The notes under the pieces: generated by a model
What the model was told of the DNA's origin: nothing
Seen by the model: only the letters and a program-made list of their open reading frames with translations
The model's database searches: none
Translations under genes and position numbers: made by a program
In this document: piece after piece, positions 1,783 to 29,476 of the stretch
Numbering within the stretch: the first letter of the stretch is position 1
Layout: each line of letters begins with the position of its first letter
From: Myxococcales bacterium
GTDB lineage: Bacteria > Myxococcota_A > Polyangia > Haliangiales > Haliangiaceae
Direction: 5' to 3'
DNA length: 32,000 nt
Assembly: GCA_016717005.1 (NCBI GenBank)
Contig: JADJUF010000037.1
Coordinates: 759,011 to 791,010, forward strand

Positions 1783-1940
1783 ACAAGGTCGGCCAGCCAA
1801 CCAACCCGGCGCGCGCGTGCGCGATCTCGTCGTCGCGGACTCGCCGGGGCCACCGGTCCTGTCAAGGTCGGGCGGCCAGCGAACCCGGCGCGCGCGTGCG
1901 CGATCTCGTCGCTGCGTCCTCGCCGGGTCCACCGGTTTGG
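1783..1940. repeat. Imperfect 79-bp tandem duplication (2 units: 1783-1861 and 1862-1940)
   Basis: Read directly. Both units share the identical core aacccggcgcgcgcgtgcgcgatctcgtcg, and the flanks are about 80% identical with two small indels. It lies between the stop of the hydrolase gene (1952) and the start of the next gene (1744). Confidence 0.85.
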
Positions 1941-1951
1941 TCAGCGCGCGG

Positions 1952-3112
1952 TCACAGGGCCTCCTCGTAGTTGTGGGCCTTGGGGTAGGTGTCGTCGACC
2001 TGGTCGATGGTCGGGCCGCCGCTGGCGCACTGCAGCGTCGACTCGAGCACCGTGGTCGACGCGAAGTTGATGATGTCCCAGGCCTCGGGCCCGGGGATGT
2101 AGGCTGGGTCGCAGTCGAACAACAGGCCGGCCGCGGCCGCGCCGCACAGCTGGTAGTCGTTGGCGATCTCGAGCAGGTCCTTGCCCGCGGCGTTCTTGGT
2201 CTCGCACAGATCGGAGAACGCGAGGTGGGCGCCGCCGACGATGCTGAGGTAGTGGCGGGGCGTGGCCGAGGTCGACCACGCGGTGTGCGCCGCCGACGGC
2301 TGGACGATGCCGTCCTGGTCGCCGGCCATGAACAGCACGCGCTCGAGCGTCGACGAGGCGGCCGCGGCCTGGTTGCCGGCCATGCTGATCACCACGCGCA
2401 CGCCCGGCAGCGCGGTCGACGACGCGGCCACGCCGGCGCCGGCCGAGTGCCCGGCGACGCCGATCCGGGTGGCGTCGACGTGCCCGGCCAGGAACGCCAG
2501 GTCGTCGGTGGGCGCGCCCAGCGCGGCGATCTCGGCGGCGACGTCGCCGGCCAGGTCGCGGGCGCCGGTCGGCGTGTCGGGGCACAGCATCGTCAGGATG
2601 TCGCCGAGGATCAGGCCCGGGTGATCGGCGGCGATCACCACGAAGCCGCGGCTGGCCCAGTGCGTGACGATCGGCAGCGACTGGTGGCGGAACGCGGCGG
2701 TGCCGTGGACGAACACCACCGCCGGGTACGGGCCGTGGGCGTCGTCGAGGGGCAGGTCGCGGTAGCAGTCGCAGGTCTGCCACGGGTTGTCGGCGTCGCT
2801 GATGACGTCCTGCTGCATCGGGTTGAGCGCCTGGCGCAGGTCGTAGCGCGCCGGCGTCTGCCCAGCCTCGCTGCCGCGGGTGGCCGGGTACCAGACCTCG
2901 ACCTTGCCGAGCCGACCCAGCGCGACGGTGCGCGCGCCGACCGGCCACGGCCCCCGCTCGGCCGGGTCGTGTGGCTTCGACAGGAGCGTCGCGCCGGCGC
3001 AGCCCGGGATGTCGACGACCGGCGCGGGGCCGCCGTCGTCGCCGCCGCAGGCGACGAGCGGGGCCAGCATGCCGACGACGGTGGCGAGCGCGATCGGGCG
3101 GGCGGTGCGCAT
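1952..3112 (-). CDS. Alpha/beta-hydrolase lipoprotein (PAF-acetylhydrolase / dienelactone-hydrolase-like)
   Basis: ORF 1952..3112-. N-terminus MRTARPIALATVVGMLAPLVACGG (lipobox). Nucleophile elbow GHSAG in IGVAGHSAGAG. Upstream VFVHG oxyanion-type strand. Confidence 0.85.
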   Translation of the reverse strand: MRTARPIALATVVGMLAPLVACGGDDGGPAPVVDIPGCAGATLLSKPHDPAERGPWPVGARTVALGRLGKVEVWYPATRGSEAGQTPARYDLRQALNPMQQDVISDADNPWQTCDCYRDLPLDDAHGPYPAVVFVHGTAAFRHQSLPIVTHWASRGFVVIAADHPGLILGDILTMLCPDTPTGARDLAGDVAAEIAALGAPTDDLAFLAGHVDATRIGVAGHSAGAGVAASSTALPGVRVVISMAGNQAAAASSTLERVLFMAGDQDGIVQPSAAHTAWSTSATPRHYLSIVGGAHLAFSDLCETKNAAGKDLLEIANDYQLCGAAAAGLLFDCDPAYIPGPEAWDIINFASTTVLESTLQCASGGPTIDQVDDTYPKAHNYEEAL

Positions 3113-3232
3113 GCCCGGACGCTAGCAGCGATGCGCGGCGGTGCGCGCGCGGATCATCGGCCTGGCGGCCGCGGCGAGCGCGACCGTCGCTGACCGCCCG
3201 CTTACTCGGGCTTTCGCGGTACCGTGGGGTCG

Positions 3233-3780: not shown

Positions 3781-4428
3781 ATGAACAAGCTCGCGGCTCT
3801 CGTGATCCTCGCCGCGGCGTGCGGCGGCAAGTCGACGCCGACCACGCCCGGCAACACCGGCGGCGGCGCCAGCGGTCCGGTCTACGCGGCGCTGCTCGAG
3901 CAGGGCGCGCGCTGGTCGTTCGCGCTGACCCACAAGGTCACGCCGCCGGTCGATGACGGCCCGCCCACCACCGAGGCCGCCGGCGCGATGACCTGCACCG
4001 TCGCCATGGCGCACCCGATGGGCGACCTGCAGCTGTCCAAGATCGAGTGCGTCGGCGAGCAGGCGCCCGGCGACGGCTTCGCGCCCGCCGGCTACTGGGT
4101 GGCCAGCCCCGCCGGCCTGTGGCACCTCGACGGCTCGCTCACGATGGACGAGGTCCACGCCCAGGTCGCGGCGCTCGATCCCAAGAAGATGCTGATCGCC
4201 GCGACCCCGGCCGCGCACTCGGACCAGCTCGGCGACCTCGACAACGGCGACGGCCTCGAGGTCTTCGCCGCCAAGCCCGGCGCCGGCGGCGGCTGGTGCG
4301 TCGCCTACACGATGGCGATGGGCGACGAGGCCGGCTGGGAGCTGTGCCTCACCGCCGGCGCGATCGCGTCGGGCAGCTGGTTCTCGGCCGGCGCGACCGT
4401 CGACGAGATGAGCTACGTCGCGCAGTGA
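3781..4428 (+). CDS. Hypothetical lipoprotein
   Basis: This is the tail of track ORF 2971..4428+. ATG 3781 gives MNKLAALVILAAACGGKSTP (signal peptide + Cys), followed by balanced composition. Confidence 0.75.
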   Translation: MNKLAALVILAAACGGKSTPTTPGNTGGGASGPVYAALLEQGARWSFALTHKVTPPVDDGPPTTEAAGAMTCTVAMAHPMGDLQLSKIECVGEQAPGDGFAPAGYWVASPAGLWHLDGSLTMDEVHAQVAALDPKKMLIAATPAAHSDQLGDLDNGDGLEVFAAKPGAGGGWCVAYTMAMGDEAGWELCLTAGAIASGSWFSAGATVDEMSYVAQ

Positions 4429-4437
4429 ACGGTCACT
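4424..4437. terminator. Short hairpin joining two convergent stop codons (AGTGA-acgg-TCACT)
   Basis: TGA 4426-4428 (+ gene) and TCA 4433-4435 (- gene) sit in the two 5-bp arms. There is no U-tract. Confidence 0.3.
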
Positions 4438-5500
4438 CGCAGGCGTAGCCGCGGACGAGGCCGTCGGCGCTGGCGGCGACGATGACGCCGGTGGTCGGCT
4501 CGATCGCGATGTCGACCGCGGCGGCGATGGGCTCGGTGCGCACGGGCCGGAGGTCGGCGAGCGTCCACCAGGTCAGCTCGGCGCCGTCGCCGCGCTGGGC
4601 CAGGGTCACGGCGAGGCCGTCGCCGTCGAGGCGGAGCACGCGATCGATCCGGACGTCGGTGGTGGCGAGGGCGCGCGGCCCGGCCGCGAGCTGGTCGCTG
4701 TCGAACCGTGCGATGAGCTGATCGCCGGCCGCGACCACCGACGCACCGCTGGGATCGGTGGCGAGGCTGCGGAACCAGCCCTGCGCGAGACCGCCGCCGG
4801 CGCCGTTGCAGGTGTCCCAGGCGACGGCGGCCGCGGTCGGGTCGGCGAGGTCGCGCCGCTCGATCGCCGGGCAGCCGTACCACTCGCCGACCGTGAGCCA
4901 GCGATCGCCGGGGGCCAGGCGCGCGGCCGCGGCGTGCCACAAGGTCGTCGTCAGCGGGCCCACGCGCGCGCCGGTCGCCAGCTCGACCAGCGTCAGATCG
5001 CCCGCGAAGGAGTCGGTGGCGCCGGCCAGCCAGCGGCCGTCGTCGTCGAGCGCCGCCGCGACGCCGGCGGCGGGCAAGAGCGCCTGGCGCGGCCCGAGCG
5101 CGCCGGCGGCCACGATCCAGGTCGACGCGCCGCCCTCGACGTCGATCGCCGCGACCGTGCCGTCGGCGGTGGCCGTGAGCGCGGCGGTGGCCACGCCGCT
5201 GGTGGCGAGGGGCTCGCCGTAGCCCGGGCGCACGGCCGTGGCGCCGGCCGCCGACAGGTGCCAGGGCTTGACCGCGCCGTCGGCGCTGGCGATCACGAAG
5301 GACGCCCCGGCGCCCGCCAGCGCGGTGATCGGCGCGTGGACGTTGTCGACCCGCCACCGGGTCGTGACCGCGACCGCCGGATCGGCGCACCGCGCCAGCG
5401 GCGACGGCGGGACCGGCGGCGGCGGCGGCGGCGCGGCCGCGTCGGTGCAGGCGAGGGTGGCGGAGGTGAGGCTGGCGAGGGCGATGACCGAGGTGCGCAT
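4433..5500 (-). CDS. Hypothetical lipoprotein, possibly beta-propeller-like
   Basis: ORF 4433..5533-. ATG 5500 gives MRTSVIALASLTSATLACTD, with GAGGA 9 nt upstream. The mature part has repetitive Ala/Gly/Asp/Trp beta-strand-like segments. Confidence 0.75.
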   Translation of the reverse strand: MRTSVIALASLTSATLACTDAAAPPPPPPVPPSPLARCADPAVAVTTRWRVDNVHAPITALAGAGASFVIASADGAVKPWHLSAAGATAVRPGYGEPLATSGVATAALTATADGTVAAIDVEGGASTWIVAAGALGPRQALLPAAGVAAALDDDGRWLAGATDSFAGDLTLVELATGARVGPLTTTLWHAAAARLAPGDRWLTVGEWYGCPAIERRDLADPTAAAVAWDTCNGAGGGLAQGWFRSLATDPSGASVVAAGDQLIARFDSDQLAAGPRALATTDVRIDRVLRLDGDGLAVTLAQRGDGAELTWWTLADLRPVRTEPIAAAVDIAIEPTTGVIVAASADGLVRGYACE

Positions 5501-5689: not shown

Positions 5690-6139
5690 TCAGCGGGCCC
5701 AGAGCTCGAGCTGGGCCTTGCCGCCGCCGGGGAGGTTGCCGTAGCGGAACTCGACGCGGCGGATCGCGCGGTTGCCGCCGGGCAGATCGATGTCGCGGCT
5801 CCACGCGCCCTGGCCGAAGACGAGGCGCGTGCCGGGGGAGAACGAGGTGCCGTCGCCGAACACCACGACGACGTCGAACAGCTCGAGCGCGCTGTGCTCG
5901 GCCTTGAGCTTGATGGTGGTGAAGCGGCCGTCGTCGCGCCCGACGGGGATGACGTCGCGATCGGCGCGGCCGTTGACCCAGCGCTCGCCGAGCTTGTCCC
6001 AGCCGGTCATGGCCTCGACCCGATGGTCGCGGGCGTCGTCACGGCGCTCGGCCGCGCGCGGCCCGGGGCGGGTCTTGACGACGCAGGCGGTGAGCGACAG
6101 GGCGAGGAAGGCGAGGGCGAAGGCGCGAGAGATCGTCAT
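5690..6139 (-). CDS. Hypothetical lipoprotein
   Basis: ORF 5690..6259-. The internal ATG 6139 gives MTISRAFALAFLALSLTACVV (lipobox LTAC). The rest is well-balanced sequence (...TTIKLKAEHSALELFDVVVVFGDGTSF...). Confidence 0.75.
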   Translation of the reverse strand: MTISRAFALAFLALSLTACVVKTRPGPRAAERRDDARDHRVEAMTGWDKLGERWVNGRADRDVIPVGRDDGRFTTIKLKAEHSALELFDVVVVFGDGTSFSPGTRLVFGQGAWSRDIDLPGGNRAIRRVEFRYGNLPGGGKAQLELWAR

Positions 6140-6339
6140 GCTGCTTGGACCATGATCTGCGCCGTTGGTTAGGACCGACCCGCGATCGAACCGGGCGGCG
6201 CGCATCCCGGCCCTTTGGGTAGAGCAACCCGCGTGCCGCGCGCAGGCCCGCGCGATCACGTCGTCGCCGGGATCTGCAGGTCCCGGTGCGGCTCAGCCTA
6301 TTGCTCGTCGACGGGCACGCCGGGTCGATCTAGCAGGCC

Positions 6340-6512
6340 GCACGCCGCGGTCGGAGTGTACCGGCGCGGCACCAGCCCGGGCCTCACGGCGCGGTCGGCG
6401 TGTACCGGCGCGGCGGCCCGGGCCTCACGGCGCGGTTGGCGTGCGTCGGAGTGGCACCAGCCCGGGGCTCACGGCGCGGTCGGCTTGCGCCGGAGCGGCA
6501 CCAGCCCGGGGC
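6340..6512 (-). repeat. Four tandem units (44, 41, 44, 44 bp) reproducing the last 13 codons + stop of gene 6469..7038
   Basis: Units are 6340-6383, 6384-6424, 6425-6468 and 6469-6512 (the last is the real gene end). TCA (the stop on the minus strand) starts units 2-4 and has become GCA in unit 1. Divergence increases with distance from the gene. Confidence 0.9.
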
Positions 6513-7038
6513 GCAGCGGCGCGGCGATGCCGGCCTCGAAGTCGACCCAGATGTTGGCGTCCTCGCGGCAGTCGTACTGTCGGCACTGGGCCGGGCGGTG
6601 CGCGTAGCACTGGCAACCGCCGTCGGTGCGATCCTGGTACGCGCACGAGCCGTGGTCGCCGTGCGGCAGGACGTAGGGCTGCTCGAGCCGCCACGCCAGC
6701 TTGCCCTCGACCAGATCCTGCTCCGACAGGCTGATGTCGTACGCGCAGCACCGGCCGTGGCACAGGTGCATGCGGCTGGCGCAGTCGATCTCGGCGCCCG
6801 CCATCCCGTACTTGTCGGGCGCGGACTCGAGCCGGATCTGCGGCTCGGTGATCAGCCGCGCGTGCTGGCGCAGGCGCGTGAGCATGCGCAGGTGGCCCTC
6901 GCCGAGCTGGCCCCGCGCGCGCAGGATCTCGAGCAGCGTCTCGACCACGTAGCCGAGCTCGGCGGCGGTCTGCTCGGCGCGCTCGCTGATCGCCATCGCG
7001 CGCCGCAGCTCGGCGCGCAGCTCGTCGAGCTCGTCCAT
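6469..7038 (-). CDS. YkgJ-family cysteine-cluster (Zn/Fe-binding) protein
   Basis: ORF 6469..7038-. Cys-rich core CASRMHLCHGRCCAYDISL ... GSCAYQDRTDGGCQCYAHRPAQCRQYDC, typical of the UPF0153/YkgJ family. Its start lies 12 nt after the stop of the upstream hydrolase gene. Confidence 0.8.
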   Translation of the reverse strand: MDELDELRAELRRAMAISERAEQTAAELGYVVETLLEILRARGQLGEGHLRMLTRLRQHARLITEPQIRLESAPDKYGMAGAEIDCASRMHLCHGRCCAYDISLSEQDLVEGKLAWRLEQPYVLPHGDHGSCAYQDRTDGGCQCYAHRPAQCRQYDCREDANIWVDFEAGIAAPLRPGLVPLRRKPTAP

Positions 7039-7050
7039 GGACGCGCGCGC

Positions 7051-11471: not shown

Positions 11472-11852
11472 ATGGACGCCAAGCAGGTCATCGTGATGCG
11501 CAAGGACCTGAACATGCGCAAGGGCAAGATGATCGCCCAGGGGGCGCACGCGTCGCTCAAGGTGCTGCTCGACCGCGGCGCGCTCGCCGGCGATGGCTTC
11601 GCCTTCACGGTGACGCCGGCGATGGCGGCGTGGCTGGGCGGGCGCTTCACCAAGGTGTGCGTCGGCGTGGCCTCGGAGCAGGAGCTCGAGGACGTGGCCG
11701 CGCGGGCCCAGGCCGCCGGGCTGCCGTGCGCGGTGATCGTCGACGCCGGGGTGACCGAGTTCAAGGGCGTGCCGACCCGCACCTGCCTGGCGATCGGCCC
11801 GGCCTGGGCCGACGAGGTCGACGCCATCACCGGCGCGCTGCCGCTCCTGTGA
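11472..11852 (+). CDS. pth2: Peptidyl-tRNA hydrolase, PTH2 (archaeal/eukaryotic-type) family
   Basis: ORF 11436..11852+, ATG 11472. MDAKQVIVMRKDLNMRKGKMIAQGAHAS ... TKVCVGVASEQEL ... IVDAGVTEFKGVPTRTCLAIGP matches the PTH2 signature as I remember it. Confidence 0.85.
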   Translation: MDAKQVIVMRKDLNMRKGKMIAQGAHASLKVLLDRGALAGDGFAFTVTPAMAAWLGGRFTKVCVGVASEQELEDVAARAQAAGLPCAVIVDAGVTEFKGVPTRTCLAIGPAWADEVDAITGALPLL

Positions 11853-11959
11853 CCTCCCGGTCGCCGGGCTCCCTGGAGCGGCGGTCCGGAGCGCCCGGCT
11901 GCCCGGTGAATCGCCGACCAGCGGGATCGTCTATCCTTCATCCTCACCTGGAGCCCCCC

Positions 11960-12586
11960 ATGACGCCCCGCTGGATCACCCCGCTCCTCGCCGCCCTCGC
12001 GCTGTCCGGCTGCGCCGAGAAGAAGGCCTCGCCGCCGGCGCCGACCGCGGCGCAGCGGGCGCCCGCCGGCGTGCAGCCTCCGGGGCCGAGCCGGGATCGC
12101 CGGGTGCCGATCCGCCCGCGGCCGCAGCTGCCCGACCGGCCGGATGGCGCCGACCAGGCGCCGAGCGATCGCGCGGACCGCCCGTGGGCCGGTCGGGGTG
12201 ACCCGCGCAGCCGCGAGGAGCGCCAGGCCGCGCGCACCGAGCGCCGCGCCGAGATGATGGACATGTACGACGCCGATCAGGACGGCGCGCTGTCGGACGC
12301 CGAGCGCGCCGCGATGCGCGAGAGCCGGGTCGTCGACATGATCGGGCGCCTCGACGCCAACGAAGACGGGCGCCTGACCGAGGACGAGTTCGCGCAGTTC
12401 GGCGCCCGCGGCCGCGGCCCCGCGCTCGACTTCGCGACCGTCGACGCCGACCACGACGGCGCGATCAGCGCCGAGGAGATGAGCGCGGCCCTGCCGGCCC
12501 GGGGGCCTGGCGATCGCCCGCCCGGCGCCCGCCCGGGCCGCCGCGGCTCCGATGACGGCGCGCCGCCTGCCCCGCCGACGCCGTGA
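11960..12586 (+). CDS. EF-hand calcium-binding lipoprotein
   Basis: This is the tail of track ORF 11630..12586+. ATG 11960 has GGAG 8 nt upstream. N-terminus MTPRWITPLLAALALSGCAEKK (LSGC lipobox). Three DxDxDG loops: DADQDGALSDAE, DANEDGRLTEDE and DADHDGAISAEE. Confidence 0.8.
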   Translation: MTPRWITPLLAALALSGCAEKKASPPAPTAAQRAPAGVQPPGPSRDRRVPIRPRPQLPDRPDGADQAPSDRADRPWAGRGDPRSREERQAARTERRAEMMDMYDADQDGALSDAERAAMRESRVVDMIGRLDANEDGRLTEDEFAQFGARGRGPALDFATVDADHDGAISAEEMSAALPARGPGDRPPGARPGRRGSDDGAPPAPPTP

Positions 12587-12597
12587 CGCGCGTCAGA

Positions 12598-13139
12598 TCA
12601 CGGCGCGCCAGCTGCGCGTCGGACGCCTGATCGCGCAGCGGGTCACGGCGGGCCCGCCCGTGACCTCGTAGCGCGAGGCGCCGTCGAGCGCGTGGCCGTC
12701 GCGGACGCCTGATCGCGCCGGTCACGGCGCGCGCGCCCCCGTGACCTCGTAGCTCGAGGTGCAATCGATCGCGTGGCCGTCGCGGACGCTCACCGCGCGG
12801 CGCGTCACGGCGCGCGCGCCCCCGTGACCTCGTAGCTCGAGGTGCAGTCGATCGCGTGGCCGTCGCGGACGCCTCACCGCGCGGCCGGTCACGGCGCGCG
12901 CGCCCCGGTGACCTCGGAGCTCGAGGTGCAATCGATCGCGTGGCCGTCGCGGACGCTCACCGCGCGGCGCGTCACGGCGCGCGCGCCCCCGTGACCTCGT
13001 AGCTCGAGGTGCAGTCGATCGCCTGGCCGTCGCGGACGCCTCACCGCGCGGCGGGTCACGGCGCCCGCGCCCCCGTGACCTCGTAGCTCGAGGTGCAGTC
13101 GATCGCCTGGCCGTCGACGGCGCCGTGGGCCCGCGCGGT
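12598..13139 (-). repeat. Seven tandem units (45, 79, 83, 84, 83, 84, 84 bp) reproducing the last ~27 codons + stop of gene 13056..13574
   Basis: Units start at the TCA at 12598, 12643, 12722, 12805, 12889, 12972 and 13056 (the last is the real gene end). Units 3+4 and 5+6 form a 167-bp higher-order repeat with 4 mismatches. The two distal units are degraded. The array fills the convergent gap to the EF-hand gene. Confidence 0.95.
13054..13080 (-). terminator. 8-bp GC-rich stem-loop with the stop codon in its 3' arm (GGTCACGG-11 nt-CCGTGACC), repeated in every 83/84-bp unit
   Basis: Arms are 13054-13061 and 13073-13080. In the mRNA the arms cover codons E-V-T-G and P-stop. The same stem (7-8 bp) recurs at about 12721, 12804, 12888 and 12971. 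There is no U-tract. Confidence 0.45.
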
Positions 13140-13574
13140 CGCGACGCCGGTGATCGCGCCGTCGGCCAGCGCGCCGTCGGCGCGGATCAGCACCTCGACC
13201 GCGCCGCCCTGCTGGGTGCCCCAGCCGCCCACGACGAACGTGCCGTCGCCGTCGAGCCCGCCGGCGAGGCGGTCGAGGGCGAGGCTGGAGGTGTCGAGCA
13301 CCAGCCGCCCGTCGGTCTGCGTCACGTCGGCGCCGCCGTGATCGACCTCGCCGACGTCGCACAGCGACGCGGTGAAGCTGCCGACCTTGACCGTGCACCG
13401 CCCCGCGCACGCGCTGGTGTACAGCGTCAGGTCGTAGCTGCCGGTCGCGTCGGCGCCGGTGGCGTCGCCCGGCGGCAGGTCGGCGACGTCGACCCGCTCG
13501 AGCAGATCGCCCGGGCCGCCGCCGCAGCCCAGCGCGAGGGCCGCGAGCGCGGCCCAACCGCGGGCGCCGGTCAC
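13056..13574 (-). CDS. Hypothetical lipoprotein
   Basis: Inside ORF 13056..13832-. GTG 13574 gives VTGARGWAALAALALGCGGG (signal peptide + Cys). This GTG overlaps the upstream gene's TGA (13571-13573) as GTGA. Confidence 0.7.
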   Translation of the reverse strand: MTGARGWAALAALALGCGGGPGDLLERVDVADLPPGDATGADATGSYDLTLYTSACAGRCTVKVGSFTASLCDVGEVDHGGADVTQTDGRLVLDTSSLALDRLAGGLDGDGTFVVGGWGTQQGGAVEVLIRADGALADGAITGVATARAHGAVDGQAIDCTSSYEVTGARAP

Positions 13575-14212
13575 GGCGCGTCCGCCAGCGCGAGGGTCAG
13601 GTCGAGATCGCGCACGATCACGTCGCCGAAGTTCCAGATCGGCCCCGCGACCCGCGCGTCGACGGTCGCGACCACCGCGGGCCCGTCGGCGGTGACCTGC
13701 AGCTCGAGCCCGACGTCGCCGATGCGCTGGCTGGCGAACGGCAGCACGTCGCCGTCGTCGGCCCGCAGCGCCCAGTCGAGCACCAGCTCGACCGTGGTCG
13801 ACGTGTCGACGCCGGCGCCGTCGGCCCGCCACGCCGCGACGCCGTCGCGCTGGGTGCCCAGGCGCAGGTGCAGGTCGGTCAGGTGCAAGACGCGGGTCGT
13901 GTCGCCGAGCGCGTGCTCGAGGTCGACGTCGTCGAGATCGATCGTGAGCGCCTGGACCGCCAGGCGGTCGTCACCGACCGCGCGGACGACCACCTGGCCG
14001 CCGCGCACCCCGGGCGTCACCGGTCGCGCCACCCCGGCCTGGTCCGCGGTCAGCGCGACCGCGCCGCCGCGCAGGATCGGCAAGGCGGCGCCCGCCGCGA
14101 GCCGGCCCTCGAGCGCGCCCGCGGCGGGCCCGTCGGCCCCGTCCACGGTGCAAGCGCCGAGCGCCAGCAGGCACGCCGTGGCCATGATTGATTGAACGTT
14201 CATTCGGTTCAT
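13571..14212 (-). CDS. Hypothetical lipoprotein
   Basis: ORF 13571..14212-. N-terminus MNRMNVQSIMATACLLALGACTVD (lipobox LGAC). It has a 4-nt overlap with the next gene, so an operon is likely. Confidence 0.75.
   Translation of the reverse strand: MNRMNVQSIMATACLLALGACTVDGADGPAAGALEGRLAAGAALPILRGGAVALTADQAGVARPVTPGVRGGQVVVRAVGDDRLAVQALTIDLDDVDLEHALGDTTRVLHLTDLHLRLGTQRDGVAAWRADGAGVDTSTTVELVLDWALRADDGDVLPFASQRIGDVGLELQVTADGPAVVATVDARVAGPIWNFGDVIVRDLDLTLALADAP
14190..14205. promoter_or_regulatory. Operator-like 16-bp AT-rich palindrome, copy 1 (GATTGAACGTTCATTC)
   Basis: One of four copies of GAaTGAAC/ATTCATTC in the window. It overlaps the first codons of the lipoprotein gene that starts at 14212. 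A half-site ATTCATT also lies at 14218-14224. Confidence 0.5.
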
Positions 14213-14971: not shown

Positions 14972-15445
14972 TCAGGTCCGCGCCAGCGCGTCGAGGCACA
15001 GGCGCTTGAGCTCGTCGGCGAGCGCGGCGTCGCGGCGCGCCAGCCCGAGCAACCCGTCGACCAGCGCCGGCGTCGGGATCGCGGTCAGGGCCTGGCGCAG
15101 CAGGTCGACGCCGCGCTCGGCGTCGACGCGCTGCCGCTCGAGGTGCGCCAGCGTGATCGCGACCGTGTGCTTGCACAGGTGGCGCTCGAGGCCGACCGGG
15201 CACGTGCACGCGTAGGCCAGGCCGTCGGCGCGCACCCACAGCCGCACCGCGTAGGGCGCGCGCGTCGCCTCGGTCGGGCGCACGACGCCGCGCAGCTCGC
15301 CGGGGCCGGCGATGACCTCGGCCACGCGGCCGGCGGCGAAGCAGCGCTCGCCGCGCTCGAAGGTCCGCACGCCCGCGATCGTCGCGATCGTGCCGCGGTG
15401 CAGGATGTTGGCGATGCCGGTGTCCACGCGCCGACGATCGCACAC
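14972..15445 (-). CDS. SWIM zinc-finger domain protein
   Basis: ORF 14972..15445- (GTG start; alternative GTG at 15427). CxC-x(n)-CxH motif in YACTCPVGLERHLCKHTVA. Confidence 0.8.
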   Translation of the reverse strand: MCDRRRVDTGIANILHRGTIATIAGVRTFERGERCFAAGRVAEVIAGPGELRGVVRPTEATRAPYAVRLWVRADGLAYACTCPVGLERHLCKHTVAITLAHLERQRVDAERGVDLLRQALTAIPTPALVDGLLGLARRDAALADELKRLCLDALART

Positions 15446-15458
15446 GCCGGCCGGGCGG

Positions 15459-15722
15459 TCAGCCCTCGCCGGTGCGGACGAACTTCTCGACCGTGCTCGC
15501 CCTCAGCCCTCGCCGGTGCGGACGAACTTCTCGACCGTGCTCGCCCTCAGCCCTCGCCGGTGCGGACGAACTTCTCGACCGTGCTCGCCCTCAGCCCTCG
15601 CCGGTGCGGACGAACTTCTCGACCGTGCTCGCCCTCAGCCCTCGCCGGTGCGGACGAACTTCTCGACCGTGCTCGCCCTCAGCCCTCGCCGGTGCGGACG
15701 AACTTCTCGACCGTGCTCGCCG
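15459..15722 (-). repeat. Six tandem 44-bp units (five identical plus the real gene end, 43/44) reproducing the last 13 codons + stop of gene 15679..16149
   Basis: Unit tcagccctcgccggtgcggacgaacttctcgaccgtgctcgccc starts at 15459, 15503, 15547, 15591, 15635 and 15679. I checked the copies base by base. The array ends 13 nt upstream of the SWIM gene start. Confidence 0.97.
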
Positions 15723-16149
15723 TCAGCTTGAACGCCTGGCGGACGCGGCCGCGCCGGACCTCCTCGTCGGTCGCGACGTCGGTCACCACCAGGATCGCGT
15801 GGGGATCGTCATCGTCGATCGCGACGTCGAGGTCGGCCTTGACCCGCGCGCCGGCGTCGGTCGTGAACGTCAAGGTCCTGTGCAGGGCCGCGCGCGCCGA
15901 CTGCTCGTGGCGCCGCAGCACCTCGCTCGCGGTCTTGACCAGCGTGGCGAACGCGCCGGCGTCGAGCGGCTTGGGGTTGCGCTTGTCGCGGCCCATCGTC
16001 CACGGCCCCACCAGCGCCGGCTCGTCGTCGCCCACGCGGGTCATGGCCACGGCCCAGCCGTCGTCGTCCTCGTTCTTCTGGACCTGCGCGATCCAGCCGG
16101 CCTTGCGCCAGCGGGTCGGCTCGGTGATGTCCTCGGGAGTCGTCTCCAT
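15679..16149 (-). CDS. Hypothetical acidic cytoplasmic protein
   Basis: ORF 15679..16149-. METTPEDITEPTRWRKAGWIAQVQKNEDDDGWAVAMTRVG... Balanced composition with no signal peptide. Confidence 0.75.
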   Translation of the reverse strand: METTPEDITEPTRWRKAGWIAQVQKNEDDDGWAVAMTRVGDDEPALVGPWTMGRDKRNPKPLDAGAFATLVKTASEVLRRHEQSARAALHRTLTFTTDAGARVKADLDVAIDDDDPHAILVVTDVATDEEVRRGRVRQAFKLTASTVEKFVRTGEG

Positions 16150-16219
16150 CGGGTCACCCTAGCCCGCCCCCATGACGCTCGACGCGGCGCGGCAGGTCGC
16201 ACGCGCACTTGCATAACGT

Positions 16220-16244
16220 GCGCGACCAGAACTTCTGGGCGCGC
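16220..16244. promoter_or_regulatory. 25-bp near-perfect palindrome in a divergent intergenic region (GCGCGACCAGAA-c-TTCTGGGCGCGC)
   Basis: 12-bp arms with one mismatch. It lies between the divergent starts at 16149 (-) and 16262 (+). Confidence 0.35.
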
Positions 16245-16261
16245 TCGCGCGTTGCTCGGGT

Positions 16262-17083
16262 ATGGCGATCCCCGACTCGTCCCGTCCCCTCGCGCCCGCG
16301 CACCTCGCCCCACCTGTGCGCGTCGAGCCGGCGCCGCGCGTCGGCGCGATCGCGACCGCCGCCGCGGTCTCGGTGGCGCTCGCCGCGGGCCTCGGCGGCG
16401 GGCTCATCGCCGCCAGCGCGCCCCGAGCCCACGCCGATCCGTGCGCGCTGCCCGCCGGGCTCGAGCTGACGGCGCTCGACGACGCCGATCGCAGCTGGAT
16501 CGCGCACCGCACCCTGGCGTGCATGGACGTCGCGGCCGGCCGCATCGACGCCGCCGCGTATCGAGCCACCATCGCCGAGCTCGATCACCCGACGCCGACG
16601 CCGGTCGCGACGCCGGCGGCGCCCCCGCCGCCCGCCACGGCCAAGATGGTCTGGGCCACGCGCGTGCTCGGCTTCTCGTCGCAGTGGAGCGACGACGCCT
16701 GGTCGGCCGCGCGCGTGCTCGGCGCGCCCGACGTCGAGGCGCTCGGCACCGACGCGCCCCAGGCCTGGGCGTCGCGCGGCGCCGACGATCGCGACGAGTG
16801 GATCGAGGTCGCGCTGGCGCAGCCGACCCGCCTCGCCGGACTCCGCGTCATCGAGTCGTACAACCCCGGCGCGATCACGCGGGTCGAGGTCGCGGACGCC
16901 GACGGCGCGCGTCGGATCGTCTACTGGGGCGCGGCCGCGCCGCTGGGCCCCGCCGGCCACGAGCTGGCGGTCGCGCTGGGGTGCGCCCAGGCGCCGGTCG
17001 CGAGCATCCGGGTCACCCTCGACTCGCGCGCGGTGATCGGATGGAACGAGCTCGACGCCATCGGCGGCGTCGCCTGCGAGTGA
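16262..17083 (+). CDS. Hypothetical exported or membrane-anchored protein
   Basis: ORF 16262..17083+. It has an N-terminal hydrophobic segment (GAIATAAAVSVALAAGLGGGLIAA), a Pro/Thr linker and a C-terminal ~130-aa domain (MVWATRVLGFSSQWSDDAWSAARVLG...). I cannot assign a family confidently. Confidence 0.7.
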   Translation: MAIPDSSRPLAPAHLAPPVRVEPAPRVGAIATAAAVSVALAAGLGGGLIAASAPRAHADPCALPAGLELTALDDADRSWIAHRTLACMDVAAGRIDAAAYRATIAELDHPTPTPVATPAAPPPPATAKMVWATRVLGFSSQWSDDAWSAARVLGAPDVEALGTDAPQAWASRGADDRDEWIEVALAQPTRLAGLRVIESYNPGAITRVEVADADGARRIVYWGAAAPLGPAGHELAVALGCAQAPVASIRVTLDSRAVIGWNELDAIGGVACE

Positions 17084-17164
17084 CCGCGGCGCCGCCCGCG
17101 CGTGACCGGCGCGACCTGCCCGCGACGCCTGGCGACGCGCGCGGGCTTCGGCGATGCTGCCGCC

Positions 17165-20328: not shown

Positions 20329-21036
20329 TCACGGGATGCACTCGCACGCGTACTCCTGGGTGCCGTTGTCGAACCAGTCGTAGAACTGTCCGCTGCTGCT
20401 GACCAGGACGTAGATCTCGCCCATGCGCGCGTTGGGCTGCCCGGGCGCGAACGGTGGATTCGCGAAGGTCTGGTTCTCGACCGTGGTCCAGATACCGTCG
20501 CGCTGCGGATCGGAGATGCCGGCCCAGTAGAACGGCGAGCTGCCGTTCGGATTCACGAAGCTGTAGACCGCGGTCGCTTCACCGGTCGTCTCGGGGATGA
20601 CGAGGTAGCCACCGTCCGACCTGCAGTCGGCCGCGGCGCTGGTCCACAGCGTCAGCGTATTGACCCGTCGATACCGTGACGTGGCCGGCGCCCCGGTGAC
20701 CGCCTGATAGCCGACACAGCGCGGCTGGGCGTCGATCGGCTGGGCGTCGATCGGCTGGGCGTCGATCGGCTGGGCGTCGATCGGGCGGGCGTCGATCGGC
20801 TGGGCGTCGATCGGCTGGGCATCGATCACCTGGGCGTCGATCACCTGGGCGTCGATCACCTGCGCGTCGATCACCTGGGCGTCAGGCGCCGCATCGACCG
20901 CCGCCGCGTCCAGGTCGGCGTCGGGCGTTGCGCCGCCGTCGCCCGGGCCGTCGATCGTCGCGGCGTCCAGGGTCCCCGTGGCGGCGCGCGGATCGAATGC
21001 GCACGAGGCCAGGACGATCAGGGCGAGGTACCGCAT
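20329..21036 (-). CDS. C-type lectin domain lipoprotein with pentapeptide-repeat linker
   Basis: ORF 20329..21036-. N-terminus MRYLALIVLASCAFD (lipobox). Linker (DAQVI)x4 then (DA[QR]PI)x7. C-terminal CTLD hallmarks: WTSAAADCRSDGGYLV, YWAGISDPQRDGIWT and YDWFDNGTQEYACE. Confidence 0.85.
   Translation of the reverse strand: MRYLALIVLASCAFDPRAATGTLDAATIDGPGDGGATPDADLDAAAVDAAPDAQVIDAQVIDAQVIDAQVIDAQPIDAQPIDARPIDAQPIDAQPIDAQPIDAQPRCVGYQAVTGAPATSRYRRVNTLTLWTSAAADCRSDGGYLVIPETTGEATAVYSFVNPNGSSPFYWAGISDPQRDGIWTTVENQTFANPPFAPGQPNARMGEIYVLVSSSGQFYDWFDNGTQEYACECIP
20723..20887 (-). repeat. Eleven in-frame 15-bp tandem repeats inside the lectin gene
   Basis: Seven ggctgggcgtcgatc-type units are followed by four acctgggcgtcgatc-type units. 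They encode DAQPI and DAQVI respectively. Confidence 0.95.
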
Positions 21037-21108
21037 CGCTCCACCCTAGCACCGGCCGCCGGAGCCCGGGGCTCGACCGCGGGGCCCTCCCCCGGCCATC
21101 GATCCGTA

Positions 21109-23091: not shown

Positions 23092-24720
23092 ATGCGACGC
23101 TCGAGTCGACGCCTGCTGGTGCTGGTCGCGGCGCTGCCCGTGACGCTGGTCCTGCTGGCGTTCCTCTACATGCTCGGGATGGCGCACCTCGAGGGCAAGG
23201 AGCGCGGCTTCTGGCAGGCGCTCGAGTGGGCCGGCGAGACCGTGACCACGACCGGCTACGGCGCCGACTCGGGCTGGACTCACCCGGTGATGGTCGTGTT
23301 CACGGTCGTGACCCAGTTCGTCGGCGTGTTCATGACCTTCCTGGTCTTCCCTGTGTTCCTGATCCCGTTCTTCGAGGAGCGGTTCGAGGGACGCCTGCCG
23401 ACCAAGCTGCCGACCCGCGCCGGCACCGTGCTGGTCTACCGCTGGGGCCCGGCGGTCGCGACCTTGGTCGACGAGCTGACCCGCGAGCGGGTCCCGGTGG
23501 TGATCCTCGAGAACGACCTGGCGATCGCCCGCCGCATCCGCGATCGCGGCCACACGGTCGTCCACGGCGATCTCGATCTCGACGACGACGTCCTCGGTGA
23601 GCTGCGCGGCGTCCGCGGCATCGTCGCGAACGGCCAGGATCACCAGAACGCGGTGCTGACGCTGAGCGCGCGCCAGCGCGGCTTCAAGGGGCCGATCGTC
23701 GCGCTGGTCGAGACCCCGAGCCGGCGCGCGCCGATGATGCGCGCCGGGGCCACCGCGGTGTTCACGCCGCGCCACGCCCTCGCGGCCGCGCTCGCAGCCA
23801 AGGCCAGCGTGAAGATCAGCCCGCGCGTCACCGGCGAGCGCCGCCTGGGCAAGGCCCTCGAGATCGCCGAGGTCCGCGTGCACCGCGGCAGCGCGCTGGT
23901 CGGCACGACCCTGGCGACCGCCAACCTGCGCGGCGAGACCGGCGCCACGATCATCGGCAAGTGGATCGGCGGTGAGCTCGACGCGCCGCCGTCCCCGACC
24001 CAGCCGATGGAGGTCGGGACGATCCTGGTCGCCGCGGGCAGCCGCGACGCGATCGCGCGGCTGGGCGAGCTGGCGACGCCGGTGGCGCGCACCGGCCGGT
24101 TCTTGATCCTCGGCAACGACGAGACCGGCCGCAAGGTCGCCGAGTTCCTGCGCGACGCCGGCGAGGAGGTCACGGTCATCGACGATCAGCCCGGCGCCGG
24201 CGTCGACGTGGTCGGCGACATCCTCGATCCTGAGCTGCTCCGCCGCGCGGGCATCGCCGGGGCGCAGGCGGTGCTGCTGGTCATGGAGAGCGACAGCGAG
24301 ACCACGTTCGCCGCGGCCGTCGTCCGCGATCTGGTCAGCGACGCCGCGGTGATCGCCAGCGTCGACAACGCCGACCACGTCGCCCGGGTCCACCGCGCAG
24401 GCGCCGACTTCGTCCTGTCGATCGGGCAGGTCGCGGGTCAGCTGCTGTCGTTCCAGATCCTGGGCGAGGAGGCCGTGACCCTGCAGCCCGAGATCAAGCT
24501 GGTCAAGACCCTGGCCGGCGCCCTGGCCGGGCAACGCCTGCGCGCCGCGAAGGTGCGCGAGCGCACCGGGTGCCTGGTGATCGCGGTCGAGCGGACCGAC
24601 GAGGTCGTCGTCGACTTCCCGGGCGACTTCGTGATCGGCGCCGACGACGTCGTCTACATCAGCGGCACGCCGGCCACGATCGCCCAGTACTTCGAGACGT
24701 TCGCCGGAACCCGCCCGTGA
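23092..24720 (+). CDS. Potassium channel with two RCK (TrkA-N/TrkA-C) domains
   Basis: ORF 23092..24720+. Two TM helices flank the selectivity filter TVTTTGYGAD. Two Rossmann-like RCK-N segments follow, each with a TrkA-C-like segment. Confidence 0.9.
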   Translation: MRRSSRRLLVLVAALPVTLVLLAFLYMLGMAHLEGKERGFWQALEWAGETVTTTGYGADSGWTHPVMVVFTVVTQFVGVFMTFLVFPVFLIPFFEERFEGRLPTKLPTRAGTVLVYRWGPAVATLVDELTRERVPVVILENDLAIARRIRDRGHTVVHGDLDLDDDVLGELRGVRGIVANGQDHQNAVLTLSARQRGFKGPIVALVETPSRRAPMMRAGATAVFTPRHALAAALAAKASVKISPRVTGERRLGKALEIAEVRVHRGSALVGTTLATANLRGETGATIIGKWIGGELDAPPSPTQPMEVGTILVAAGSRDAIARLGELATPVARTGRFLILGNDETGRKVAEFLRDAGEEVTVIDDQPGAGVDVVGDILDPELLRRAGIAGAQAVLLVMESDSETTFAAAVVRDLVSDAAVIASVDNADHVARVHRAGADFVLSIGQVAGQLLSFQILGEEAVTLQPEIKLVKTLAGALAGQRLRAAKVRERTGCLVIAVERTDEVVVDFPGDFVIGADDVVYISGTPATIAQYFETFAGTRP

Positions 24721-25071
24721 TCCGCGGCCCGCGCCGCCACCGCGCCGCCACCGCGCCGGCGCGCGCGGCCCCTCGCGACCTGCGCCGGCGCCCGCCGGTG
24801 ATCGATGGCGCGCGCGCCGCCACCGCGCCGGCGCGCGCGGCCTGCGCGACCTGCGCCGGCGCTCGCCGGTGATCGATGGCGCGCGCGCCGCCACCGCGCC
24901 GGCGCGCGCGGCCTGCGCGACCTGCGCCGGCGCCCGCCGGTGATCGATGGCGCGCGCGCCGCCACCGCGCCGGCGCGCGCGGCCTGCGCGACCTGCGCCG
25001 GCGCCCGCCGGTGATCGATGGCGCGCGCGCCGCCACCGCGCCGGCGCGCGCGGCCTGCGCGACCTGCGCCG
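24707..25071 (+). repeat. Five tandem units (81, 71, 71, 71, ~60 bp) each containing a copy of the K+ channel gene's last ~4 codons + TGA + a strong GC hairpin
   Basis: TGATC starts units at 24718 (the real stop), 24799, 24870, 24941 and 25012. Units 3 and 4 are identical and unit 2 differs by 1 nt. Unit 1 carries an extra 11-bp duplication (gccaccgcgcc). Confidence 0.95.
24809..24839 (+). terminator. 11-bp all-G:C stem with 9-nt loop (CGCGCGCGCCG-ccaccgcgc-CGGCGCGCGCG), repeated in units 2-5 of the array
   Basis: Arms are 24809-24819 and 24829-24839. The same hairpin recurs at +71, +142 and +213 nt. There is no U-tract. Confidence 0.5.
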
Positions 25072-27447: not shown

Positions 27448-27465
27448 GCCGCGCGCGCGGCGGCG

Positions 27466-27559
27466 TCAGGCCGCGTCGGCGTCGGTGATCGGCGACGGCG
27501 CGCGGGCCGGGGTCAGGCCGCGTCGTCGTCGGTGATCAGCGCGACGATGATCGCGTCGC
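27466..27559 (-). repeat. 47-bp duplication of the 3' end + stop of gene 27513..28109 (units 27466-27512 and 27513-27559)
   Basis: The first 29 nt after each TCA are 27/29 identical (tcaggccgcgtcgNcgtcggtgatcNgcg) and the remainder has decayed. The copy would encode ...PITDADAA-stop versus the real ...LITDDDAA-stop. Confidence 0.85.
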
Positions 27560-28109
27560 CCGAGTCCGGGTAGGCGTAGCCGAGGTGGAGCGCGGGGCCC
27601 CGGTTGACCGCGGCGAACGCCCCGGCCTCGACCAGGTGCAGGATCGCGCGGGCGATCGCGAACCGGACGTGCCCCTCGAGCCAACCGTCCTCGCCGCCCT
27701 GGTTGAGCGCCTCGTACTGGGGCGAGCGCAGGAACGGATCGTAGCTGATCGTGAACTCATGGACGGCCTCGTCGCACGACGTGTACTCGCCGTAGCGTGG
27801 GTCGAACGTGCGGGCCTCGGTCCGGGCCGCGACGGTCTTGGCGGTCTGCCAGCTGTCGGGCCGGCCCGCGACCTCGGGGATCAGCGCGCGCATCTGCGCG
27901 TTGCGCGCCTTGGCGCCCGCCTGGTTGCGCGCGGCGGTGTCGAGGTGGACCTCGTACCAGCCCTTGTACGGATCGGCCCACAGCACGATCGCCGCCAGCG
28001 GCTCGTCGCCGTGGCCCAGGGCGATCACGTCGATCGCGGCGCGCAGCTCGGTCACGAGCTCGGCCTCGAGCGCCTGCCAGTCAGGGGGAGCGAGCGGGTC
28101 GGCGGTCAT
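27513..28109 (-). CDS. Hypothetical cytoplasmic protein (DUF4303-like, by recollection only)
   Basis: ORF 27513..28109-. MTADPLAPPDWQALEAELVTELRAAIDVIALGHGDEPLAAIVLWADPYKGWYEVHLDTAARN... Confidence 0.7.
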   Translation of the reverse strand: MTADPLAPPDWQALEAELVTELRAAIDVIALGHGDEPLAAIVLWADPYKGWYEVHLDTAARNQAGAKARNAQMRALIPEVAGRPDSWQTAKTVAARTEARTFDPRYGEYTSCDEAVHEFTISYDPFLRSPQYEALNQGGEDGWLEGHVRFAIARAILHLVEAGAFAAVNRGPALHLGYAYPDSGDAIIVALITDDDAA

Positions 28110-28133
28110 CGGCCGAGCCTACACGGCGTCGGC

Positions 28134-28637
28134 TCACAGGAGCGTCAGCTCGGCGCCGGCCATCGACATGATCATCTCGATCTCGCCGACCGTGAAGCCC
28201 TCGCTCTCGGAGCGATCGACCTCGTAGGCGAAGGCGGCGGCGGCCGGATCGAGCGTGGCCTCGATCGCGTCGCGGGGCGACAGCATCTCGAGATCGGCGA
28301 ACAGGATCAGCCGGTCGTCATCGCCGCCGGGCGCGTAGACGACGGCCTCGTGCTCGGGCGCGAACAGCAGGACCCCGCTGTGCGGCGCGCTGAGATCGAC
28401 CCGGCCGCGGATCGGCGGCGGCATCGACTCGCCCAGGAGCGCGACCGGCTGCATCTTCGCGAGCCAGTCGGGCTTGGTCGCGGCCATGCGATCGCGCACG
28501 GCCGGCAGGTGGTGGGCGAGCAGGTCGGCGCGCGCGGCCTCGGGCAGCGTGGCCCAGTCGAAGAACCAGGCCTCGGCGTCGCCGAGGATCGTGACGATGG
28601 TCAGCTTGCCGACGTGGGGAGCCAGGCTGGGGTGCAT
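28134..28637 (-). CDS. Hypothetical protein
   Basis: Inside ORF 28134..28844-. ATG 28637 gives MHPSLAPHVGKLTIVTILGDAEAWFFDWATLPE... It is on the same strand as the previous gene, 24 nt away. Confidence 0.65.
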   Translation of the reverse strand: MHPSLAPHVGKLTIVTILGDAEAWFFDWATLPEAARADLLAHHLPAVRDRMAATKPDWLAKMQPVALLGESMPPPIRGRVDLSAPHSGVLLFAPEHEAVVYAPGGDDDRLILFADLEMLSPRDAIEATLDPAAAAFAYEVDRSESEGFTVGEIEMIMSMAGAELTLL

Positions 28638-28705
28638 CGGCGCGAGGGTACATCGGGCGCGCGCGGCGCGGGCGGCGCGGGCGGCGTCCGCGGTACGATG
28701 GGGCG

Positions 28706-29476
28706 ATGTCCCTGCGATCGATCGCGGCGTGGTCGCTGCTCGCGCCGCTGGCCCTGTCCTGCACACCCCCGCCGCCGGTCCCGCTGGGGCCGCCGCCGCC
28801 GGGGCCCGAGGTGGCGGTCGCGGTCGAGCCACCGCCGCCGCCACCGCCGCCGGGGCCGCCCGCGCCCAGCGACGGCGCGGTCGACGCCGCGCGCCAGGAG
28901 CTCGGCGAGCGCGCCGCCCAGACCCACGGCATCAAGCTGTACTCGCACCACCGCCGTCACCTCGGCAACCACGACCGGGTGTTCGCGCCGATCGTCGCCA
29001 CCGACGACGGCGGCGTGGTCGTCGTCGGCACCCGGGTCACGCCGCGCCCGGGCCGCGCCGGGCTCTCGACCGCGGTGGCCGCCCGCTTCGACGGCGCCGG
29101 CGCGCCGGTGTGGGAGCTCGACTTCAGCCGCAAGGGCTTCCCGGAGTCCGAGGGCGGCAGCGCGGCGCTGGCCCCCGACGGGGTGATCCTGTTCGTGCTC
29201 GAGTACGTCAACCCGGCCTGGGGCGGCGTCCCGCGGCTGATCAAGCTCGACCCGTCGGGCGCGACCGTGTGGGACTGGCGCGGGCGCGGGCGTGGCGGCG
29301 TCGACACGCCGTTCGCCGACGTGCTGCAGCTCACGGCCGATCAGACCGTGACCATCAACGGCCACGTCTACGTCAAGAAGGGCGCGCCGGCCCGCGACTG
29401 GCGCGGCGAGGTCGACGCCAGCGGCGCGCTGATCCACGACGAGATCGGCGGCCCCGACCCGTCCGGCCTGCTGTGA
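28706..29476 (+). CDS. Hypothetical lipoprotein with poly-Pro linker
   Basis: ORF 28706..29476+. N-terminus MSLRSIAAWSLLAPLALSCTPPPPVPLGPPPPGPE. Confidence 0.75.
   Translation: MSLRSIAAWSLLAPLALSCTPPPPVPLGPPPPGPEVAVAVEPPPPPPPPGPPAPSDGAVDAARQELGERAAQTHGIKLYSHHRRHLGNHDRVFAPIVATDDGGVVVVGTRVTPRPGRAGLSTAVAARFDGAGAPVWELDFSRKGFPESEGGSAALAPDGVILFVLEYVNPAWGGVPRLIKLDPSGATVWDWRGRGRGGVDTPFADVLQLTADQTVTINGHVYVKKGAPARDWRGEVDASGALIHDEIGGPDPSGLL

Follow-up and report, generated by a model that had tools for sequence, protein, structure and literature searches.

Tandem copies of a lipoprotein gene end between two converging genes of a Myxococcales bacterium: a probable stop-shielded minisatellite

Why should the short gap between two converging bacterial genes be filled with repeated copies of the end of one of them? 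We address this question for the array at positions 12598-13139 of a 32-kb stretch of contig JADJUF010000037.1 (Myxococcales bacterium, assembly GCA_016717005.1), the whole of which we refer to as the window. The array lies between a lipoprotein gene, whose 3' end it copies, and an EF-hand gene on the opposite strand. A preliminary description of the locus had noted that each full copy can fold the stop codon into a hairpin, and had proposed that these hairpins act as stacked terminators between the two converging transcription units. Having compared the units with each other, with shuffled sequences, with the other repeats in the window and with orthologous loci, we consider it probable that the array is a locally born bacterial minisatellite, in which a duplication that survived because it was shielded by a stop codon was expanded by unequal exchange, and not a purpose-built terminator stack.

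Anatomy and local origin of the array

The source of the repeat is the lipoprotein gene at 13056..13574 on the minus strand, which encodes 172 amino acids, has a G+C fraction at third codon positions (GC3) of 0.98 and begins with a GTG that overlaps the stop of the upstream gene. Its product is 100% identical to P0001, a protein of the metagenome-assembled genome (MAG) Myxococcales bacterium (IPL61_26945). An alignment of 11 sequences (alignment A1) showed that the C-terminus of the window protein, DCTSSYEVTGARAP*, is the usual end point of the family, whose C-terminal pattern reads DCT..YE.TGAR.., and all ten family homologs (10/10) end at this same point without repeats. Because the lipoprotein gene ends at the normal C-terminus of its family, the copies in the array are extra sequence.

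On the minus strand the array consists of seven head-to-tail units, every one of them terminated by TGA. The unit boundaries are the TCAs at 12598, 12643, 12722, 12805, 12889, 12972 and 13056, just where they had been placed before, and from the distal end towards the gene the units measure 45, 79, 83, 84, 83, 84 and 84 nt. Unit 7 (84 nt, 13056..13139) is the expressed one and comprises the last 27 codons and the TGA of the lipoprotein gene. It is followed by four silent minus-strand copies, namely unit 6 (84 nt, 12972..13055; gcagtcgat type, Q variant), unit 5 (83 nt, 12889..12971; gcaatcgat type, with a Y-to-S change and a C-C mismatch in its stem), unit 4 (84 nt, 12805..12888) and unit 3 (83 nt, 12722..12804). 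Unit 2 (79 nt, 12643..12721, minus strand) is an older, diverged copy that contains the longest near-palindrome, GGTCACGGGCGGGCCCGCCGTGACC, while unit 1 (45 nt, 12598..12642, minus strand) has kept the start of the stem arm and the linker, its middle having been deleted. Translation of units 3-7 gives ...DG(H/Q)AIDCTSS(Y/S)EVTGARAP*, and for these five the earlier statement that the units copy the gene end applies at the protein level; for units 1-2 the homology is at the DNA level only (alignment A2).

Tandem Repeats Finder (TRF) reported a period of 84 nt with 6.1 copies (91% matches, score 798) and a period of 167 nt with 3.0 copies (score 817). The longer period corresponds to higher-order dimers of 167 bp formed by units 3+4 and units 5+6. 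When the two dimers were compared (12722-12888 against 12889-13055), they differed at exactly 4 positions, 12740, 12750, 12856 and 12886 (the differences being C/G, T/G, G/C and C/G), which reproduces to the base the alternation of 83 and 84 nt and the four mismatches first noted. Unit 7 and unit 6 are distinguished by 1 site in the 59 nt closest to the stop, and unit 4 is one site away both from unit 6 and from unit 3, whereas unit 2 is much more diverged than the proximal units and unit 1 is without its middle. This graded divergence towards the far end fits expansion by unequal exchange with distal decay. The unit comparisons accordingly lend support to the view that the 3' end of the gene was duplicated in a nested manner, that a dimer was itself duplicated and that the distal units decayed.

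Each unit is made of two parts, about 59 nt of gene end including the stop and a linker of about 25 nt (alignment A2; junction alignment A3). On the plus strand the linker reads CGGACGCC-TGA/TCA-(T/C)CGCGC...TCACGG and is homologous to the stop region of the EF-hand gene, ...CCGACGCCGTGACGCGCGTCAGA followed directly by TCACGG; more weakly, it resembles a stretch of the lipoprotein gene itself, 84-87 nt upstream. The duplicated segment is flanked by short direct repeats, GACC and CCGCGCGG, at 13140-13131 and 13057-13044, 83-87 nt apart. We counted 6 occurrences of the unit's 26-nt core in the window where 0.00 were expected, and all of them fall within 12598-13139. Head-to-tail copies and a unit drawn from local sequence, not from a dispersed element, are among the features of a minisatellite, and both were found here.

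The converging gene, which encodes an EF-hand lipoprotein (11957..12586, plus strand; Pfam EF-hand_1/5/7), has its stop codon at 12584-12586, and the array does fill the convergent gap right up to it, as the preliminary description had said. The periodicity in fact extends further, since the last 12 codons and stop of the EF-hand gene (12551-12592) align in register with 12596-12637 (A3) at a score of 35 that was reached by 1 of 500 dinucleotide shuffles and 5 of 1937 genomic controls, and TRF detected a period of 45 nt with 2.3 copies across 12551-12654. We therefore propose an eighth unit at 12551..12597, composed of the last 12 EF-hand codons, the TGA and an 11-nt spacer, and homologous to unit 1 and to the linker of every unit. 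The similarity between the 84-nt unit and 12400-12597 was at chance level (score 28 versus 24 +/- 3.8), and the EF-hand gene end is linked to the array only via the 45-nt unit 1 and the linker. At this distal end, either the EF-hand tail was derived from the array or unit 1 was copied from the EF-hand tail.

In a frame plot, the part of the EF-hand gene after the last EF-hand appears as a low-complexity tail in which the GC3 signal is lost. The last ~28 residues of the protein (PARGPGDRPPGARPGRRGSDDGAPPAPPTP; 12480-12586, plus strand) are of low complexity and without GC3 signal. A homolog search with the EF-hand protein returned distant EF-hand matches only, leaving the C-terminal tail unmatched, and the protein may recently have been extended at this end into sequence derived from the repeat.

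Given that the source is a MAG and that the copy number of near-identical arrays is hard to assemble, we considered whether assembly or polishing might have created the array as a whole, or else its copy number and the alternation of 83 and 84 nt, as an artefact. The difference between 83 and 84 nt comes down to one base in a short C run (GACGCTCA versus GACGCCTCA), which is a typical long-read error. However, the unit types also differ by substitutions (gcaatcgat versus gcagtcgat; CGCGCC versus CCGGCC/CCCGCC), identity is lost gradually towards the distal end and one unit carries an internal deletion, a structure that assemblers do not invent. Moreover, five other arrays built from unrelated units have the same anatomy, and we regard an artefact as very improbable.

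It is even harder to believe that the silent units are C-terminal cassettes for gene conversion, of the pilin type or as in a diversity-generating retroelement, or that they descend from a protein with 28-residue C-terminal repeats. The length of 84 nt does equal 28 codons, and H/Q and Y/S changes set the silent copies apart from the expressed end, but these are just two amino-acid differences over four full silent copies. In addition, no unit is free of a stop codon and the reading frame is lost in the 83-nt units, while the repeat-free ends of all ten homologs speak against decayed protein repeats. A diversity-generating retroelement was rejected on the grounds that the differences (listed above for the two dimers) are not confined to adenines and that Pfam found no reverse transcriptase among the ~30 open reading frames (ORFs) scanned in the window; transposases and recombinases were likewise missing from this set. 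The surroundings are those of an ordinary chromosome, with genes for IMPDH, an S15 peptidase, a TrkA-domain channel, PTH2 and TetR.

How, then, might the array have arisen? In the starting state that we envisage, the stop codons of the two genes would have converged at a distance of about 11 nt. Replication slippage or unequal exchange between short direct repeats would have produced a first duplication that spanned both stops, and later unequal recombination would have enlarged the array, the duplication of the 83+84 dimer being the final event. The distal units would meanwhile have decayed, and one of them would have lost its middle. Under this scheme the lipoprotein would be read from the unit nearest the gene body and would end at the first TGA, the EF-hand protein would end in the far unit, and the units between the two stops would be silent. 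In very G+C-rich DNA full of short direct repeats (75-79% G+C here), tandem duplications are presumably frequent and selection would purge those that break a frame; the survivors would be duplications with a length divisible by three, or those in which the stop codon of the first unit protects the protein. With the protein shielded by the first stop codon, the duplication would have been tolerated, and the array would persist because it costs nothing. The one physical effect of which we are sure is that the convergent gap grew from ~11-46 bp to ~470 bp of G+C-rich, stem-forming 3' sequence, and any putative effect of the longer gap on termination or RNA decay would be incidental.

Hairpins and orthologous loci

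The main alternative to neutral expansion is that the array was selected as a stack of stem-loops that terminates or insulates transcription between the converging genes, or blocks 3' exonucleases, with more units providing tighter insulation. A ribosome terminating at the real stop would melt the first stem, and under this view it is the untranslated downstream copies that do the work. Such a function would agree with the presence of a G+C-rich inverted repeat of 7-8 bp in every unit, with the ability of palindromes to fold on transcripts of either direction and with the location of the array exactly between converging genes; in addition, unit 2 and two other arrays in the window fold somewhat better than shuffled sequences.

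We therefore examined the proposed hairpin unit by unit. The inverted repeat GGTCACGG-N11-CCGTGACC surrounds the real stop codon at 13054..13080 and recurs at 12970, 12887, 12803 and 12720, amounting to 5 occurrences in the window against 0.13 expected, all inside the array and in the same orientation. The inverted repeat reported for each full unit is thus present, but only 2 of the 5 full units have all pairs of the 8-bp stem. In the remaining three, 7 of the 8 pairs can form, with units 4 and 6 being without the terminal pair and unit 5 having an internal C-C mismatch, and the stem changes in units 4-6 are uncompensated.

Folding of the individual units gave results no better than shuffles. 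Windows of 71 nt, one for each unit, yielded z-scores between -1.7 (unit 2) and +0.8 relative to dinucleotide shuffles, the z-score of the whole array was -1.2, and in 3 of the 5 full units the minimum-energy fold bypasses the proposed stem. The 7-8-bp stem, which overlaps the stop codon, is accordingly not more stable than in shuffled sequence. No T-tract was found after the stems, where the sequence reads CCGCCGCGCGG, and a promoter/terminator scan of 11800-13700 came back empty, with 0 terminator-like sites. With the bacterial RNA polymerases tested so far, a stem that has no U-tract performs poorly as an intrinsic terminator. A scan of the full 32 kb against Rfam detected no family. For comparison, 70-nt segments at 29 gene ends of the window gave a folding energy of -32.0 +/- 4.8 kcal/mol, and intragenic segments one of -30.2 +/- 5.8 kcal/mol. 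Because gene ends fold like gene interiors, stems of this kind are background in DNA of such G+C content.

The complementarity of the stem arms has a simpler source. The arms are the codons V-T-G and P-stop, and at the homologous place orthologs carry T-G...G-P-V (ACCGG...CCGGT) inside their coding sequence, which indicates that the complementarity was inherited from codons. The stem-loop in each unit would therefore come free, being made of codons that were there already. Furthermore, no comparable stem accompanies the gene ends that are copied at 6336 and 15459, as illustrated by a two-unit fold of 6385-6472 in the former (z = +1.6).

Comparison with orthologous loci, which had been suggested as a check on the terminator proposal, also goes against it. 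In the syntenic locus L008 the TetR protein is 68% identical to that of the window, the 213-aa gene product 44% and the lipoprotein 54%; the syntenic lipoprotein orthologs show ~54-55% identity. In L008 and L007/L011, 43-46 bp lie between the lipoprotein gene and the next gene and there is no long-unit array, and the L013 contig, which ends in a microsatellite ~20 nt past the stop, is without an 84-nt array. The more distant loci L001/L012 (48% identity for L001), which have other neighbours, have a gap of 15 bp and no array. Orthologs thus do without the array, their gaps being 15-46 bp. Its absence from the orthologous loci of more distant relatives is what a recent origin predicts. A profile search of genome and metagenome contigs with the family alignment recovered relatives at 48-55% identity only and no close strain, and the nearest relatives across all collections show 48-57% protein identity.

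Taken together, these results provide no computable support for a stacked-terminator function, considering the z-scores of the units, the missing T-tract and the uncompensated stem changes. The array is not a canonical intrinsic terminator, and we judge a selected stem-loop stack to be unlikely.

The orthologous loci showed two further features. After the stop of the gene, L013 contains the hexanucleotide (TTCGGT) repeated 10.3 times (6029-6090) and reaching the contig end, and L007 (5511-5545) and L011 (10499-10533) contain (ACCGAA) repeated 2-3 times at the same place; the 3' flank of the lipoprotein gene is repeat-prone in other Myxococcota MAG lineages too, with different repeats. The L007/L008 operons also have an extra 318-aa gene (4048-5004) between the 212-aa and lipoprotein genes, with junctions of 4-nt overlaps. 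The window is without this gene, and here the 213-aa gene directly overlaps the start of the lipoprotein gene (GTGA, 13571-13574).

Stop-anchored arrays across the window

The minisatellite at 12598-13139 is one of six arrays in the window with units of >=44 nt, which together total 1575 bp or 4.9% of its length. The array at 6336..6524 (minus strand; 44 nt x 4.3, 83% identity) has units ending in CCGTGA, the stop of the CxxCxxCC-domain gene at 6469-7050, and that at 15459..15727 (minus strand; 44 nt x 6.1, 99% identity) copies ...STVEKFVRTGEG-TGA of the gene at 15679-16149. At 24741-25071, or 24711..25071 when delimited more widely (plus strand; 71 nt x 4.6, 98% identity), the units contain CCGCCGGTGATC, which is homologous to the stop region of a TrkA-domain gene (stop 24720). 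The repeat at 27451..27541 (minus strand; 47 nt x 1.9, 88% identity) lies in a convergent gap and copies GATCACCGACG.CGACGCGGCCTGAC, the end of the gene at 27513-28118, and the intergenic repeat at 1784..1936 (minus strand; 79 nt x 1.9) begins 16 nt past the stop of the hydrolase gene at 1952-3121. Each array has its own unrelated and locally derived unit, yet all six (6/6) begin in a stop codon or <=25 nt after one, and 0 span a start codon. Because five further arrays, those at 6336, 15459, 17062, 24741 and 27451, are copies of different gene ends and unrelated in sequence, what they have in common is their place at a stop codon and not the hairpin. The identities range from 83% to 99% (TRF), which points to a continuing process.

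A weak 22 nt x 2 repeat at 17062..17105 (plus strand) has both units ending in GTGA, the stop of the gene at 16217-17083, and the strong arrays inside genes have units of 15 nt and 36 nt, both of them multiples of three. The former (15 nt x 10.8, 20722-20883, minus strand) encodes ~11 copies of (V/P)IDAQ in the N-terminal part of a C-type-lectin-domain gene (20329-21045), and the latter is a 36 nt x 2.2 repeat.

Could the window instead record a process specific to this genome that actively forms repeats, with a preference for the 3' ends of genes? In its strongest form this proposal, which we hold to be quite unlikely, pictures a Myxococcota chromosome in which an unusually active process seeds long-unit arrays at stop ends, a counterpart to that of Borg elements, triggered by palindromes and tuning read-through, so that the arrays might be tunable 3' regulatory RNA. 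Replication stalling at terminator-like palindromes and conflicts between replication and transcription would be possible triggers. That six long-unit arrays with identities of up to 99% lie at or just after stops within 32 kb, while ~48 kb of related loci hold no such arrays, is in keeping with this proposal, as is the Borg precedent. Against it, we are dealing with a single window, perhaps chosen as repeat-rich, and the related loci are probably short-read assemblies, judging from contig names and coverage tags, which break or collapse at arrays; the L013 contig does end in a microsatellite. The units are also imperfect and G+C-rich, unlike the A-rich Borg repeats, the ~30 ORFs scanned include no unusual polymerase or reverse transcriptase, and the tolerance filter outlined above already accounts for the positions of the arrays.

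Several observations nevertheless weigh against neutral expansion as we have presented it. Six arrays at stops and 0 at starts are more than pure tolerance obviously predicts, an excess that hints at a mutational bias towards the 3' ends of genes. When the other arrays were folded two units at a time, the z-scores ranged from +1.6 to -3.4, and two of the folds, 24792-24933 (z = -3.4) and 27451-27544 (z = -2.6), were better than shuffles. The hallmark of a neutral variable-number tandem repeat (VNTR) would be variation in copy number between strains, and no relative closer than 57% protein identity was found in any collection. Finally, we infer neutrality from a lack of functional evidence, and the units that bear on it are only six and are not independent. 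Hairpin-stimulated misalignment is established in E. coli, and palindromes at gene ends may likewise promote the initial slippage.

We additionally made some observations on individual repeats. In the array at 15459-15727, the units correspond to the last 13 codons and TGA of a 156-aa gene (15679-16149), the short repeat GCTGAC flanks the duplicated segment, and the array ends 14 nt short of the GTG of a SWIM-like gene on the same strand (14972-15445); it looks the youngest in the window. The array at 24741-25071 sits between the TrkA-domain gene and a 3-dmu-9_3-mt-family gene, and every 71-nt unit holds GGTGATCGATGG, that is, a stop and then an ATG. The 79-nt unit of the repeat at 1784-1936 contains TTGACA. 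In the repeat at 20722-20883 the first four units are of the V variant and the remainder of the P variant (IDAQV/IDAQP). Elsewhere, two long, high-GC3 reading frames, 28134-28931 (minus strand) and 28595-29476 (plus strand), overlap on opposite strands by ~340 nt, and the extent of at least one of them must be wrong; the overlap holds several short repeats of 9-18 nt (28630-28693).

Significance and comparison with known systems

By itself, the array at 12598-13139 is an ordinary and probably neutral minisatellite, the value of which lies in being a very clean example: one duplication spans two converging stops and leaves both proteins untouched, and the sequence of events can be read from the higher-order structure. 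On a wider scale, long-unit arrays make up ~5% of 32 kb, every one of them being anchored at a stop and none at a start. If this holds across the 1.26-Mb contig, it would be a measurable signature of tandem duplication and purifying selection in very G+C-rich genomes, and it would provide natural copy-number variants for testing the effects of stems on termination. There is a practical side as well, in that annotators and gene callers that are naive to repeats can mis-call ORFs across such arrays, and short-read assemblies break there.

A literature search for stop-codon-spanning tandem repeats in Myxococcota found nothing specific. More generally, tandem repeats of prokaryotes show an enrichment downstream of stop codons and are seldom found within genes (PMC12418385).

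Intrinsic and tandem terminators share with the array a G+C-rich stem-loop at a gene 3' end, repeated in a convergent gap, but here there is no U-tract, the stem is coding sequence over a stop codon and its stability is at background. Repetitive extragenic palindromic (REP) sequences and bacterial interspersed mosaic elements (BIMEs) are also short palindromes clustered after gene ends; we rejected them as REPs are dispersed genome-wide and often alternate in orientation, whereas all 5 copies of the palindrome are direct and lie in one array. Mycobacterial interspersed repetitive units (MIRUs) are intergenic tandem units, 40-100 nt long, in a G+C-rich bacterium and keep the flanking genes intact, which is reminiscent of the situation here. 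They constitute one dispersed and apparently mobile family, inserted at start codons (summarised in PMC12548453), and the MIRU carries an ORF coupled to the downstream gene, while the arrays in the window each copy the stop end of the adjacent gene. A MIRU was rejected on two grounds, the presence of 0 copies outside the array in 32 kb and the location of the array between two converging stop codons.

Nearer to our array are the intergenic minisatellites and VNTRs of Burkholderia pseudomallei, another G+C-rich genome, where units are mostly 6-9 nt (PMC1853098). In both cases the units are local and head-to-tail, most arrays are intergenic, lengths inside genes are divisible by three, and an origin by slippage or unequal exchange is presumed. 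The differences are that the unit here is 83/84 nt long, has a higher-order period of 167 nt and joins a gene tail to a converging stop region.

The closest described pattern to the arrays of the window is that of Borg elements, in which every repeat located in an ORF has a length divisible by three, and roughly half of the repeat regions either lie between genes or begin with a unit placed in the end of a gene (PMC9879509). As in the window, there are many independent local arrays, each of them unique, and partial repeats flank the arrays (PMC9879509). Borg units, however, are perfect and A-rich and belong to an archaeal element with its genes on one strand, whereas the arrays described here are 83-99% identical, lie in DNA of 75-79% G+C and form part of a bacterial chromosome.

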